64,000 bases of DNA, from IMG/VR virus record IMGVR_UViG_2939127364_000001; one strand, written 5' to 3'. Every line of letters begins with the position of its first letter. The first letter of the stretch is position 1. Shown here one piece after another: positions 18,266 to 36,419 of the stretch. The notes beneath the pieces are model-generated. The model ran no database searches. It was not told the DNA's origin and saw nothing but the letters and a program-made list of their open reading frames with translations. This DNA comes from a virus (Duplodnaviria; Heunggongvirae; Uroviricota; Caudoviricetes). The translations under genes and the position numbers were made by a program.

Positions 18266-18308
18266 AAAACAACTTGTTTACTGCATCTGCTAACCAACTT
18301 GTTTTCTA
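18266..18308 (-). promoter_or_regulatory. Two copies of the AAAACAA-N-TTGTTTT palindrome upstream of the terminase small subunit gene
   Basis: AAAACAACTTGTTTACT and AACCAACTTGTTTTCTA, 40-80 nt upstream of the TerS start; a short hairpin AGAGCGC..GCGCTCT lies between them and the ATG. Confidence 0.45.
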
Positions 18309-31268: not shown

Positions 31269-31285
31269 CTTAAACAACATGTTTT
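31269..31285 (-). promoter_or_regulatory. Palindromic motif variant (TAAACAACATGTTTTCT)
   Basis: Upstream of the acidic-protein gene. Confidence 0.4.
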
Positions 31286-31619
31286 CTTGATGGTGTTATT
31301 ATCGCAATAACGCACAGGCGAAAAAGGATTTTATTCCGGTGAATGTGGTTTTGGCAGTGAGTTTTCAGGTTCAGTACCGAGTACACTTTTTACATTATTC
31401 TGATTTAGTGGCCGAAGGTGGCTGGTGGGCAGAATAATCCTCTCCCCGAAAACCTACTGAAATCGATTGTGACCCGTTGGCTGTCTGGCACAATTACGCT
31501 GTAACTGGGCATTCAGAGGGAATCCAGCGGTAAGTAAGTTCGCCTGCACGTGAGCGCCTCTCTTCTTCCCGCACATTACAGGTGGGTAGCCGCAACTCTC
31601 CCTATCGCTATACCGGTAC

Positions 31620-31765
31620 GCCGCCGTTCCTGAACCGGCATCGAGCCTTTTCCCGAAATCCACACAGGCAACTCGACCGTTTCCCTGAAAATCCCCAGCC
31701 GTTCCCCGAAGGCAACCCAGCCGTTTCTGTAGCGGGATGCAGCCTTTTCCCTGTATGGACCGAAG
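31620..31765. repeat. Iteron-like direct repeats, family 1, cluster B (6 copies, 21-23 bp period)
   Basis: GCCGTTCCTGAA, GCCTTTTCCCGAAA, CCGTTTCCCTGAAAA, GCCGTTCCCCGAA, GCCGTTTCTGTAG, GCCTTTTCCCTGTA at roughly two-helical-turn spacing. Confidence 0.6.
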
Positions 31766-31899
31766 GCTAACCGTAGGGGTGTTACGGGGGATAAAATCAG
31801 GAGTTGAATAAATACGAAAAAGGAGGCGACACCCCTCCTTCCCTCCCCACTTATACATACCTGTCTTGTTCGCTATACATGTTGTGTTTTCTTCGTGTT

Positions 31900-32720
31900 T
31901 TATCTGTCTCAACCTCTCTATAGGCGTTAATGCTCACTCCTTCCAGAATGTTCTATACGGCGACTATTTCTGTTGGTGAATTGGGTGTGTCGTTCTCTCT
32001 GTCGGTGTAAATGGTTTCGTTCGTTTTGCGGTGGTTCTTCTGTGGGGTGTTCTCGTCGTTTTGGTGATTGTTCTTCTCCGTCTATGGAGTAATGGCAGGT
32101 GGGCGATTCCTTTCGTTATTGTGTTTGAGTTGTTTGTCTGGAGTGTGTGAAAGGCTTTTGTAGTTATTCGTGTATTGGGTAATGGCGTTTCCCGTGATTG
32201 TTATGTTTCGTGTCTTTTGGGATTGAGAGAAACCTTGCGGTTACAGGCTTCGTTGGGGTTTCAGTGATTCTGGTGTTTCTTCGCTGTTTGGGTAATGGCG
32301 TGTCGTGGGTATCGCGCGTATGAATGTTTTCGGATTGCCTGTGAAAGTTAGGTTGGTTGTCCGGTAGCCTGGGAAGAAGAGGTGGGTCTTTTCGGTAGCC
32401 TGCCATAAAGAGGTTGGTTGTTTTGGGGAATGACATGTGTGTTATTTAGTTGTTTTGTTATGCCTGAAAATAAGTTGTTTATATGGTTGTGTAACGCAAC
32501 GGGAACGATTTTGAGCGTGTGTTTTTGTTGGTAGTGTGTTGGATCGTCTGTGGTGAAAATTGGACGCTGTGGCGCTGTCTGCTGCGTAGAATTACGGGTA
32601 TAAGCAGTGATGTGTGAAAACGTCAATTTTTTAGACCAAATCGGGTGAAAGCGTTGATGTTTCGTTGATCTGTTATTCAGTTGTTTTCTTATTGGTATAA
32701 ACAACTATAACCTATTGATA
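31900..32720. other. Noncoding tract of about 0.8 kb, strongly G+T-rich on the plus strand, with internal direct repeats
   Basis: Few A/C on the plus strand; repeated GGTAATGGCG-containing units near 32086, 32176, 32290 and CGGTAGCCTG..AAGAGGTKGG near 32362 and 32393; only low-complexity ORFs. Confidence 0.5.
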
Positions 32721-32823
32721 TTTAAGGATGTGATTGCAGGTATAGAATGGGGGTAGTGGCGATCAACGGATTCTTATAGAAAAGAATCAAATTGTGACCG
32801 CCATTATCAATGAGTTGCAACCG

Positions 32824-33393
32824 TTAGTTGTTCAGATAAACATTTGGAACACGGACGTAGAAGTTCCTGTCGCCGGTAAGTTCCAGAGTAATGTTAATGT
32901 CATTACCATTGTCTAGTGTAGCCGTTGCTCTATAGAACTTATCCGTCACCTTGTCCTCTATTGTCACCTTCATACATTTTGGTGCAGTCGAACCGTTATT
33001 CTCTTTCAGAATGGTCGTTACGAGAGGACAAGCCGCTTCTTCAAGAGCAACCTCTTTCTGGTGTGGGATACCGATGAAGATGTTACCAGCAAGCAACGCG
33101 ACGATTACGATAAAAGGAAGTCGACTGCCTTTTGTAACGGTGGCACGTTTCCAGAGATAGACCGGAAGGAGAAATACTCCCCACAGGATGGCCGGTGGTT
33201 CATACCCTGCATCAGACAATGCCATTCTGTCAGCCACCAGAAAGCCGAGTCCAGCGACTCCACCTATCACTATTGCATAATTCAAATACTCATCTGGCGG
33301 CGCTCCAAAGAAGAGAGGCAGTAAAGCTAGAAGCCACGCATAAGCATTATTCAGAGGTTTTGTTTGTTGGTTCTGGGTTTCCATCACATCCAT
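32824..33393 (-). CDS. Inner-membrane protein with C-terminal soluble domain
   Basis: N-terminal hydrophobic helices (WLLALLPLFFG, IVIGGVAGLGFLV, ILWGVFLLPVYLW, FIVIVALLAGNIFIGI). Confidence 0.4.
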   Translation of the reverse strand: MDVMETQNQQTKPLNNAYAWLLALLPLFFGAPPDEYLNYAIVIGGVAGLGFLVADRMALSDAGYEPPAILWGVFLLPVYLWKRATVTKGSRLPFIVIVALLAGNIFIGIPHQKEVALEEAACPLVTTILKENNGSTAPKCMKVTIEDKVTDKFYRATATLDNGNDINITLELTGDRNFYVRVPNVYLNN

Positions 33394-33767
33394 TCCATCA
33401 CATAAAAATCGCGTTTATATATTATCAATTTTCTCACTTGTATAACCTAAATACGCATCCGTTTATCAATCCACCTTCCACAAACATCAGCTTTAGCTAT
33501 GAAAAATAACAATCTCAAAGTGAAAACCATTATCATAGGAAACGATTAGATGAGATGGTCTAATTCATCATCTATCATTGCTTTAACACTTGAATCATTA
33601 ACCCCGTATTGATTTATGAACCGTTTCAGCTCCGGTGAAAACTGAAGGTAGATATCGTGAGCGTTTTTCACTGTAGGTTCAACGCCACGCATTTCAAGCG
33701 CCTTTAGTAGATATGAGTCTTCTTTAAGCATAAATTCTCCGTTGTCTAGTATGAAGCGATTGCCGGA

Positions 33768-34228: not shown

Positions 34229-36262
34229 TTACTTAACCTGGTGGCCTGGTTTAGCACCAGCATCCGGGCTTAACAGGAAGATATCTTTCCCGCCGGGGCC
34301 AGCAGCCATCACCATGCCTTCGGAGATACCGAAGCGCATTTTACGCGGAGCCAGGTTAGCCACCATAATGGTGTGACGACCAATCAGTGCCTGTGGGTCT
34401 GGATAAGCAGAACGGATGCCTGAGAAGACATTACGCTTTTCACCACCGAGATCCAGTGTCAGACGCAGCAGTTTGTCAGAACCTTCGACAAACTCCGCGT
34501 TTTCAATCAGCGCCACACGCAGGTCAACTTTGGCGAAGTCGTCAAAGGTGATGGTTTCCTGAATCGGGTCGTCAGCCAGTGGGCCAGTTACCGGTGCAGC
34601 TGTGGCTTTCACTTCTTCTTTGGATGCTTCCACCAGTGCTTCCACCTGTTTCATATCGATACGGTTATACAATGCCTTGAACGGATTCACTTTATGGCCC
34701 AGCAGCGGTTGCTGGATACCATCCCAGGTCAGTTCTGTATTCAGGAATGCTTCTGCACGTTCAGTCAGTTTCGGCAGTACCGGTTTCAAGTACGTCATCA
34801 GCACGCGGAACAGGTTAATGCCCATAGAGCAAATCGCCTGCAGATCGGCATCGCGTCCTTCCTGCTTCGCCACCACCCACGGAGCCTGTTCATCGACATA
34901 TCGGTTAGCCAGGTCAGCCAATGCCATGATTTCACGGATAGCTTTACCAAATTCGCGGCTTTCCCATGCTTCGCCAATCACTTCAGCGGCATCAGTAAAG
35001 GTTTTGTACAGTTGCGGGTCAGCCAGTTCGCTTGCCAGCACGCCGTCAAAACGCTTGTTGATAAAGCCTGCATTACGGGAGGCCAGGTTAACCACTTTGT
35101 TCACGATATCGGCATTCACGCGCTGAACGAAATCCTCCAGGTTGAGATCGATATCATCAATGCGCGAAGAGAGTTTCGCAGTGTAGTAGTAACGCAGGCT
35201 GTCGGCGTCAAAATGATTCAGCCAGGTGCTGGCTTTAATAAAGGTGCCGCGAGACTTGGACATCTTCGCGCCGTTCACCGTCACATAGCCGTGAACAAAC
35301 AGGTTGGTCGGCTTGCGGAAGTTGCTGCCTTCCAGCATGGCAGGCCAGAACAGGCTGTGGAAGTAAACAATATCTTTACCGATGAAGTGGTACAGCTCGG
35401 CTGTGGAGTCTTTCTTCCAGTATTCATCGAAGCTGGTGGTATCGCCGCGCTTGTCGCACAGATTCTTGAAGGAACCCATGTAGCCAATCGGCGCGTCCAG
35501 CCAGACGTAGAAATATTTGCCCGGCGCGTTCGGAATTTCAAAACCGAAGTAAGGCGCATCGCGGGAGATATCCCACTGTTGCAGGCCGGATTCAAACCAC
35601 TCCTGCATTTTGTTCGCCACCTGCTCCTGCAACGCACCGCTGCGGGTCCATGCCTGCAACATTTCGCTGAAAGAGGGCAGATCAAAGAAGAAGTGTTCGG
35701 AATCACGCATTACCGGGGTAGCGCCAGAAACCACCGATTTCGGCTCGATCAATTCAGTCGGGCTATATGTTGCGCCGCAGACTTCACAGTTATCGCCGTA
35801 TTGATCTGGCGCTTTACATTTCGGGCAGGTGCCTTTCACAAAACGATCCGGCAGGAACATGCCTTTTTCCGGGTCGTACAACTGAGAGATAGTGCGGTTT
35901 TTAATAAAACCGTTCTCTTTCAGGCGAGTATAGATAAGCTCAGACAGCTGGCGGTTCTCTTCGCTGTGCGTCGAGTGATAGTTGTCATAGCTGATGTTAA
36001 AGCCTGCGAAATCAGTCTGGTGTTCCTGACTCATTTCGCCAATCATCTGCTCCGGTGTGATACCAAGCTGCTGTGCTTTCAGCATGATCGGCGTACCGTG
36101 GGCATCGTCGGCACAGATGAAATTAACCTCGTGGCCGCGCATTCGCTGGTAACGAACCCAGACATCAGCCTGGATGTGCTCCAGCATATGGCCGAGGTGG
36201 ATTGAGCCGTTAGCGTACGGCAGCGCGCACGTCACCAGAATTTTCTTCGCGACTTGGGTCAT
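34229..36262 (-). CDS. metG: Methionine--tRNA ligase
   Basis: 677 aa from [29 protein letters not shown] (HIGH motif), KMSKS present, C-terminal tRNA-binding domain; near identical to the E. coli MetG I know. Track ORF is an N-terminally over-extended version. Confidence 0.95.
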
Positions 36263-36419
36263 AGTAGGCATTACTTCTTTGTAGTGAAAAGGGGCTTGAT
36301 AGTAACAAAATGGCCTTATGTCTGCCATGTGATAACAGCATTTCTCATAAATGATTAAATGTCGTAGCTGGAGTACACTACAAGGCGACAATTGCGCAAA
36401 TTAAAATAAAGGAGACGGG

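Follow-up and report, generated by a model that had tools for sequence, protein, structure and literature searches.

Rho requires RNA that is untranslated, weakly folded, rich in C and poor in G, and its known utilisation (rut) regions span about 80-100 nucleotides (nt). In Rho-dependent terminators such as lambda tR1 and trp t′, RNA of this kind lies past a stop codon, the transcript is lost without a canonical hairpin followed by a U-run, and a hairpin upstream could protect the trimmed 3′ end. Here we describe a tract with the same traits at positions 31900-32720 of the IMG/VR virus record IMGVR_UViG_2939127364_000001 (Caudoviricetes); the window that was analysed, to which all coordinates refer, is the whole stretch of 64,000 nt. 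Based on matches to the Escherichia phage Cyrano, to the phages CMS-2020a, PhiR41_1 and SSU5 and to the plasmid pHCM2, the window is assigned to the SSU5/pHCM2-type phage-plasmids. The tract resembles a Rho-dependent terminator on every feature tested. Unlike the known rut regions it measures about 760 nt and carries conserved repeats, operator-like sites and a closing hairpin with a U-run of its own; its size and its internal conserved repeats fall outside the usual description of a Rho terminator. It is the core of a conserved noncoding module of about 1.55 kb (about 31272-32802), which is located between variable cargo genes. As its selected function we tentatively favour a one-way, Rho-type barrier to minus-strand transcription, which would shield the iteron module and the early operon of the phage-plasmid.

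Composition, coding capacity and transcription of the tract

The plus strand of 31900-32720 has base fractions of A 0.174, C 0.139, G 0.295 and T 0.392; those of the core at 31940-32560 are A 0.151, C 0.127, G 0.319 and T 0.403. The extreme strand bias claimed in the initial annotation is borne out by sliding windows. The highest G+T content of any 820-nt window in the 64 kb is that of 31879-32698 (0.701); the mean of all such windows is 0.498 with a standard deviation of 0.029, which places the tract about 7 standard deviations away, and the next most extreme value is 0.568. In 300-nt windows over the tract, the GC skew ranges from +0.25 to +0.48 and the AT skew from -0.14 to -0.53. The minus strand has an excess of C over G of 10 or more per 100 nt in an unbroken run from 31941 to 32700 (760 nt), the core tract, whereas the longest other run of this kind on either strand of the window is 360 nt. 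A minus-sense transcript of the tract would be rich in C and A and poor in G (C 0.30-0.32, G 0.13-0.14): 100-nt windows from about 32680 to 31981 contain 27-38 C and 8-17 G, and the C/G ratio is about 2 or more from the tract entry on (27/14 and 24/10 per 100 nt at 32830-32681). Also, a global replication skew switch at the tract was considered and rejected, as the cumulative GC skew has no inflection at this locus on the 2-kb scale.

The tract is noncoding and its open reading frames (ORFs) are of low complexity, as was first proposed. In the window there are two of them, of 118 amino acids (32348-32704) and 90 amino acids (32164-32436), both on the minus strand, and two phage records, Cyrano (CYRAN_103 and CYRAN_104) and PhiR41_1, annotate low-complexity minus-strand ORFs in the module. 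These annotations would make the tract a region encoding low-complexity minus-strand proteins, which we find scarcely credible. Long open frames occur in all three minus-sense frames of 17 representative relatives, because stop codons are rare at the tract composition, and none of them is kept in position or frame. The variability across codon positions is flat (0.159/0.152/0.147), so that no codon periodicity is seen, and the indels that separate relatives in the tract (1, 12, 21 and 23 nt) include frame-breaking ones. On reading the sequence, no Shine-Dalgarno motif was seen before the ATG of the 90-amino-acid ORF. The NCBI Prokaryotic Genome Annotation Pipeline (PGAP) leaves about 31280-32830 unannotated in RefSeq relatives, and CYRAN_103 is at 0 fragments per kilobase per million (FPKM) in lysogeny broth (LB).

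Concerning RNA folding, the minimum free energy of the tract (811 nt) is -121.7 kcal/mol for the minus-sense RNA and -211.2 kcal/mol for the plus sense. Neither strand folds better than its dinucleotide shuffles (z -0.29 for minus, +0.49 for plus). The search of Rfam (E up to 1) returned no match in the tract and two chance-level miRNA matches outside it, and covariation was found solely at the hairpin that closes the tract at its distal end. A structured long noncoding RNA, which the initial annotation had offered as an alternative, is not supported by the fold scores or by the blank Rfam result; the tract is also silent in lysogeny. Its suggestion that a minus-strand transcript would have the composition of Rho-utilisation sites holds, the RNA being untranslated and weakly folded as well as C-rich.

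Expression values are available for Cyrano, which is 97.4% identical to the window over the block 31300-32800. A re-analysis of LF82 RNA-seq data (GEO GSE154648) gives per-gene Cyrano values as log2(FPKM+5) (PMC9928086, S1 Table) for ten samples, including two in LB and samples from macrophages. For CYRAN_102, the same-strand cargo gene directly upstream, the LB values are 6.0 and 5.64 (about 59 and 45 FPKM), and the highest value, in macrophages, is 9.21. CYRAN_103, which corresponds to 32348-32704 in the tract, is at 2.32 in both LB samples (0 FPKM), has a maximum of 4.27 across the ten samples and is the lowest gene of the neighbourhood in all of them. CYRAN_104, over the iterons, is low, and CYRAN_105, behind the early promoter, shows an independent rise to log2 7.8 (PMC9928086). 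Since CYRAN_102 is expressed and CYRAN_103 is at 0 FPKM, the cargo-gene transcript in lysogeny ends no later than the tract entry, and neither strand of the tract appears to be expressed. A pattern scan of the entry region (32700-32830) found no hairpin-plus-T-run terminator.

Taken as a terminator, the locus thus shows a transcript that ends in vivo, at gene level in Cyrano, where no intrinsic terminator was found; C-rich, G-poor RNA over at least 80 nt; little RNA structure; and an untranslated position downstream of a same-strand ORF (32824-33393). A possible course of events is as follows. Variable cargo genes, of which at least one is expressed in lysogeny, are located directly upstream of the module; polymerase that leaves them would run into 760 nt whose RNA is untranslated, weakly folded, rich in C and poor in G, and Rho would load on this RNA and terminate. 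An invariant hairpin at the entry (32758-32802) may protect the 3′ end of the cargo mRNA, and the minus-sense-specific exit hairpin with its U-run would halt those polymerases that escape. The barrier would keep transcription off the 22-bp-phased iterons and the operator-controlled early operon during the plasmid state. The narrower claim, that Rho terminates in the tract, is one in which we have somewhat more confidence than in insulation as the function that was selected.

Several findings weigh against a barrier of this kind. The frequency of YC dinucleotides is no higher than base composition predicts (z -1.7), and 760 nt far exceeds what termination needs; the barrier model does not explain the length of about 0.8 kb. 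Blocks of the tract are more conserved (0.90-0.98) than an element defined only by composition requires, and the repeated motifs described below as types A and B are kept in number and orientation, which the model leaves unexplained. The transcript is absent already over 32348-32704, so that the stop in lysogeny does not require the greater part of the tract. A selected terminator-like hairpin at the distal end implies that polymerase reaches the far end under some condition. Also, the RNA-seq values come from a relative with a different cargo gene, and they are gene-level values whose strand specificity is not established.

Distribution and conservation across relatives

Besides Cyrano, the phages CMS-2020a and PhiR41_1 match the block 31300-32800, and Escherichia coli plasmids of about 108-114 kb match it with up to 97.9% identity. 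Phage SSU5 itself matches at 69%. In PLSDB, searched at blastn sensitivity, 832 plasmids contain a match to the block, the majority of which are found in Klebsiella (425) and Escherichia (223), followed by Enterobacter (90), Salmonella (49, including pHCM2 of 106,706 bp) and Citrobacter (25). Two scans of IMG/VR with conserved words yielded 45 distinct sequences, represented by 19 at 95% identity. A scan of genome contigs with a GC-rich gapped pattern gave chance matches in high-GC genomes, the only relevant match being one in Kluyvera (L068).

A similarly skewed tract of about 800 nt (G+T 0.64-0.77 in 200-nt windows) is present at the syntenic position in distant relatives, namely an E. coli plasmid at 73% identity and the Citrobacter, Enterobacter, pHCM2, Klebsiella and SSU5 types at about 66-69%. 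The tract is also present in all of 13 further IMG/VR members, and the skew is seen in every intact relative examined. It is disrupted by insertion sequences in the module of two relatives (L139 and L202), and in a third (L159) the right end has been replaced exactly at the TATACC motif of a promoter-like site. In one more (L203, IMG/VR UViG_2903001996_000001, about 800-1110 of the oriented extract) the tract is reduced to about 160 nt beside the hairpin and the iterons, which are kept; a genuine promoter/operator module and an ORF of about 29 codons have taken the place of the remainder.

Across the representatives, the noncoding block 31280-32810 is conserved with a majority fraction of 0.66-0.98 per 20-nt bin. 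The two exceptions are the weaker bins at 31500-31600 (0.53-0.64) and at 31880-31920 (0.28-0.46), the latter being an insertion specific to the E. coli group. The most conserved stretch of the tract is 32040-32100 (0.90-0.98). Conservation drops to 0.2-0.5 in the genes that flank the module on both sides. These are all on the minus strand and are swapped between relatives: the 189-amino-acid protein upstream in the window is unrelated to CYRAN_102.

The skew could instead be a functionless by-product of strand-specific mutation, for example if one strand is frequently exposed as single-stranded DNA and undergoes deamination. A comparison is offered by the heavy strand of vertebrate mitochondrial DNA, which is likewise rich in G+T; the region is noncoding and its composition would be free to drift, and the types of mismatch between distant relatives, as calculated from mismatch counts, are close to random pairing at the tract composition. 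However, mutation pressure predicts the reverse of what is seen, namely a G+T of 0.73 in the conserved columns vs 0.61 in the most variable ones. That the bias is strongest at the most constrained columns argues against pure mutation pressure and for selection. The block is better conserved than the flanking genes, the skew ends sharply at defined conserved boundaries, and neither the remainder of the window nor two other stretches from a related plasmid (L003, L009) contain a comparable skewed tract. We consider a purely mutational origin of the skew highly improbable.

Hairpins, promoter-like sites and repeats of the module

In the minus sense, the module consists of a hairpin, the C/A-rich tract with its repeats and operator-like sites, a hairpin with a U-run, an AT-richer stretch, six iterons, a Chi site and an early promoter. 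It starts with the proximal inverted repeat (32758-32802, minus strand), just past the stop codon (32824) of the variable cargo gene at 32824-33393. This repeat has an invariant outer stem, GGCGGUCA/UGAUCGCC, in which one pair is G.U in the minus sense, and it lacks a U-run behind it. The distal hairpin (31817-31843, minus strand), after which comes UUUUUCGUAUUUAUU, is located downstream of the tract end in the minus sense. Looking at 11 distinct relatives, the cells of its pairs are paired in 97% of cases in the minus sense vs 68% in the plus sense, with many GU/GC/AU switches; the hairpin is therefore selected as a minus-sense RNA structure. The hairpin itself is found in all relatives, and the hairpin followed by the U-run (31843-31817) in the window and close relatives. 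The Citrobacter, Enterobacter and pHCM2 types have a weaker tail, with the U-run lying partly within the stem.

The downstream edge of the module is formed by an early promoter/operator module (31272-31311, minus strand; nhmmer E 1.4e-8), with the extended -10 element TGCGATAAT, then ...AAGAAAACATGTTGTTT. It is a putative promoter of the downstream minus-strand genes. The window contains seven good early promoter/leader modules, all on the minus strand and ahead of minus-strand genes; their layout is a -10 element (GATAAT in the clearest copies), about nine bases and then AAGAAAACAAnTTGTTT. There are 11 copies of the 13-bp palindrome AAACAAnTTGTTT in the window, vs 0.5 expected (at 18267, 18292, 28388, 29885, 30788, 31272, 32468, 34081, 34132, 46945 and 47674). 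Most copies are just downstream of a minus-strand -10 element and before minus-strand genes with a Shine-Dalgarno motif and an ATG. From its sequence and placement, the set looks like the operators of one repressor that would control the early promoters.

Weaker sites of this type are also found inside the tract. A partial copy of the early promoter/leader is found at 32670-32702 (minus strand; CAATAAGAAAACAAC..., nhmmer E 0.6) with no ORF after it; the least stable DNA of the block is at 32660-32720. A second leader-like copy with an operator palindrome is at 32437-32480 (minus strand): the leader part is 32437-32464 (nhmmer E 1.6), and the palindrome AAATAAGTTGTTT at 32468-32480 has one mismatch to AAACAAnTTGTTT. 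The half-site GTTGTTT is found five times in the tract in a single orientation. Between these copies, at 32597-32626 (minus strand), a weak sigma-70-like site, TTGACG-N18-TATACC, matches the consensus and is kept in six of seven aligned relatives, and it does not have the final T of a good -10 element. It is one arm of an inverted repeat, whose partner is a second TTGAC site at about 32652-32664. An nhmmer profile of the seven real modules finds only the two weak partial copies in the tract, and the idea that the tract as a whole is an array of decayed promoter modules was rejected.

The initial annotation had also noticed that the tract carries direct repeats of its own; these are family-wide and occur in a single orientation. 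The type B repeats (32335-32420, unstranded) are three tandem copies of (C)GGTAGCCTG-N-GAAGAGGTGGGT with a period of 29-31 nt, at 32335-32359 (degenerate), 32362-32388 and 32393-32420, and all relatives keep them. The type A repeats (32071-32299, unstranded) are TTCTTCTCCGTGTATGGAGTAATGGC-like, with the core GTAATGG(C) / GTAATGGC, and are found at 32071-32096, 32170-32186 and 32283-32299; relatives have three to six copies, of constant orientation and variable spacing. Right after the first type A repeat, TGGCAGGTGGGC (32093-32104) is one mismatch away from the Chi-containing TGGCTGGTGGGC (31419-31430); other lineages carry GGTGCGC at that position.

The promoter-like sites would fit a noncoding RNA gene that is expressed only after derepression, its operator-bearing modules firing in the lytic cycle. 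Candidate starts are 32670-32702, 32597-32626 and 32437-32480, and the product would be a C/A-rich RNA of up to about 0.6-0.9 kb that ends at the distal hairpin. Such an RNA would act in cis, by transcriptional activation or priming of an origin at the iterons, or in trans, as a decoy that draws off Rho or another RNA-binding factor. The early promoter/leader copies and the one operator palindrome in the tract are oriented like the real ones, the TTGACG-N18-TATACC site is conserved, the minus-sense-specific hairpin with its U-run is exactly at the far end, and silence in lysogeny is expected if the operator-binding protein represses. Repeated motifs at variable spacing in an unstructured RNA are also the layout of protein-sponge RNAs: CsrB/CsrC and CrcZ share with the tract short motifs, irregular spacing, a long noncoding sequence and a terminator-like hairpin at the end. 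Unlike in those RNAs, the GGA and A-rich ARN motifs are not enriched here, and the RNA is not detected in lysogeny and has no known partner protein. With the sponge motifs at chance level (GGA z 0.1, (ARN)4 z -0.2, AAnAAnAA z 0.1), a sponge for Hfq or CsrA is not supported. The internal modules, moreover, score poorly against the seven-module profile (the E values of 0.6 and 1.6 given above), and their -10 elements are without the conserved final T. No expression of the tract was found in any of the ten Cyrano samples, including the macrophages in which CYRAN_105 is raised. Finally, Rho would be expected to terminate an untranslated C-rich RNA of this kind before the far end. On this evidence we regard a lytic-phase RNA gene as rather improbable.

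Iteron clusters and the phage-plasmid family

As was noted at the outset, the tract adjoins an iteron cluster. This cluster B (31623-31760, unstranded) consists of six GCC(G/T)TT(T/C)CC..GAA-type repeats conserved across the family; they start at 31623, 31645, 31676, 31698, 31720 and 31742 (spacings of 22, 31, 22, 22 and 22 nt, for the most part near two helical turns), and each contains an internal TTTC..GAAA dyad. Between the distal hairpin and the iterons there is a conserved, moderately AT-rich stretch of about 32 bp (31785-31816, unstranded), with a 40-nt duplex free energy of -48.5 kcal/mol vs a window mean of -54.0. On the other side of the cluster, a Chi site (GCTGGTGG, 31421-31428, plus strand) is conserved in position in E. 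coli, Citrobacter and Klebsiella relatives. The iteron region (31521-31770) has a skew opposite to that of the tract, with a 250-nt run of C over G on the plus strand, among the five longest there; transcripts that reach the iterons from either side would therefore be C-rich and G-poor.

A second cluster of the same GCCGTTTCCC-type iteron, cluster A (27759-27880, unstranded), is located 3.9 kb from cluster B and has four copies, the first spacing being 22 nt. It is found at the 3′ end of the minus-strand gene 27885-28367, at the far end of a block of small genes; the two clusters bracket this 3.9-kb block, whose genes are of unknown function. Chi sites in opposite orientations flank cluster A (27717, minus; 27841, plus). 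Chi is frequent in the window in general (15 copies vs 1.4 expected from shuffles, a density near that of the E. coli chromosome), and several copies are in noncoding DNA beside the iteron clusters.

The initial annotation had named part of a lytic origin, together with the iterons, as another alternative. The tract would then be a DNA-level cis element of a second (lytic) origin, its type A and B repeats would bind a phage protein, and its asymmetry would serve a single-stranded stage: helicase loading, priming, or a filament of UvsX/RecA-like and gp32-like proteins on the unstructured G+T strand. RecA-type proteins have a preference for single strands rich in G and T, and the family encodes a T4-like replication and recombination set (UvsX/RecA with an intein, gp32, a UvsW-like helicase, SbcCD-like proteins, a primase, a DnaB-like helicase and a ligase). 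The iterons are genuine and conserved. They are 22-bp phased, each with an internal dyad, and beyond them come a short AT-richer stretch and then a palindrome, which is the order of elements in the lambda origin; there, as here, operator-like and promoter-like sequences upstream point toward the array. Unlike in lambda, the putative origin array is intergenic and not within an initiator gene, has six repeats with 22-bp spacing vs four, and has no O-like initiator that was found; its AT-rich stretch is short and weak, its palindrome acts as a minus-sense RNA hairpin, and lambda has no skewed tract of 0.8 kb.

The second cluster of the same iteron, 3.9 kb away, recalls the ori and crr of the satellite phage P4, two repeat clusters of one type about 4.5 kb apart; unlike in P4, the repeats here have no sequence similarity to those of P4, and no alpha-type primase-helicase is encoded nearby. 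The Rep gene of a related plasmid is flanked by GTATGCTGTCAGCGGT iterons, and GTATGCTGTCAGCGGT is absent from the window; GCCKTTTCCC is not enriched near Rep. Plasmid (RepFIB) copy-control iterons were rejected as an identity for clusters A and B, since the Rep-flanking repeats differ from them in sequence, and another protein must therefore bind the cluster A and B iterons. A DNA-level role would also account for motifs conserved in the tract beyond composition, and for the entire 1.55-kb block being a conserved island amid variable genes.

The remaining elements of an origin were not found: DnaA boxes are absent, the iterons have no strong AT-rich unwinding element beside them, and no cognate initiator gene was found. 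The spacing of the tract repeats is without helical phasing and is not conserved between relatives, and the relative described above with the reduced tract (L203) lost most of it and kept the iterons. The hairpin between the tract and the iterons fits a minus-sense RNA only, which points to a role at the RNA level. Weighing these points, we consider a DNA-level origin element possible, though unlikely.

The origins oriF and oriG of phage T4 use R-loops, which are favoured by G-rich RNA. The element resembles T4 in having UvsW-, UvsX-, gp32- and gp46/47-like proteins and promoter-like sequences aimed at the putative origin; unlike at oriF and oriG, the promoter-like sites here would yield a C/A-rich RNA. 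A plus-sense, G-rich R-loop transcript received no support, as no family-conserved plus-strand promoter was found left of the tract: the sole TAAAAT seen on reading the sequence (31792-31797) has no -35 element and is not conserved. A centromere is also unlikely, given that no partition ATPase was found among the neighbours and that the small AAA ATPase pair of the family is located elsewhere.

Both functions might be joined, with the tract as the strand-asymmetric control region of a second, lytic origin whose firing is controlled by a very long Rho trap that carries sequence-specific repeats. In lysogeny Rho would abort transcription toward the iterons; after derepression, the operator-bearing sites of the tract itself would be transcribed to the distal hairpin and switch the origin on. 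Alternatively, the unstructured G+T strand could be a loading zone for the UvsX/gp32-type machinery of the element. We know of no phage or plasmid origin of such a design, and we think this combination unlikely, although less so than a lytic-phase RNA gene.

Concerning the neighbouring genes, the window contains a 61-amino-acid ORF (33546-33731, minus strand) with a weak, sub-threshold Pfam match to the T7 gp5.9 RecBCD inhibitor (E 0.006; 16.9 bits vs a cut-off of 24.5), next to an ORF of DUF5983. Based on the annotation of close relatives, 34229-36391 (minus strand) and the adjacent plus-strand gene are metG (methionine-tRNA ligase) and divergent apbC/mrp copies; in Cyrano, the apbC gene (CYRAN_99) is expressed in lysogeny. 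A related plasmid (L009, 24483-26822 and 28096-29124; L205, 13156-15768) encodes a RecA/UvsX-like protein split by an intein with a LAGLIDADG endonuclease, as well as a T4 gp32-like single-stranded DNA-binding protein, a primase, a DnaB-like helicase and UvsW-like, SbcCD-like, ligase, NrdAB, Td and DHFR genes. This T4-style set adjoins the RepFIB plasmid replicon. A 62-kb Escherichia albertii plasmid (CP043247.1) is a cut-down derivative, which has kept the full tract-plus-iteron module at 96% identity together with the Rep gene and small early genes; no structural or terminase genes are present in the 50 kb inspected.

In the searchable literature we found no account of how SSU5/pHCM2-type elements switch from plasmid to lytic replication, and no mention of iterons, a lytic origin or a skewed tract for SSU5-type elements. 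These phage-plasmids are common in clinical Enterobacteriaceae, and carriage of resistance genes has been reported for members of the family. The 1.55-kb module is the best-conserved part of its neighbourhood, yet it is left unannotated or mis-annotated as small ORFs; it holds the clearest candidates for control in cis, namely the second iteron set, the candidate regulon of 11 operator sites and the skewed tract. As a Rho-dependent insulator, should it prove to be one, the tract would be unusual in its size and in the constraint on its sequence, and it would account for the exchange of cargo genes directly upstream that leaves the lytic genes dormant. If it is part of an origin, it gives a direct handle on the switch from plasmid to phage.

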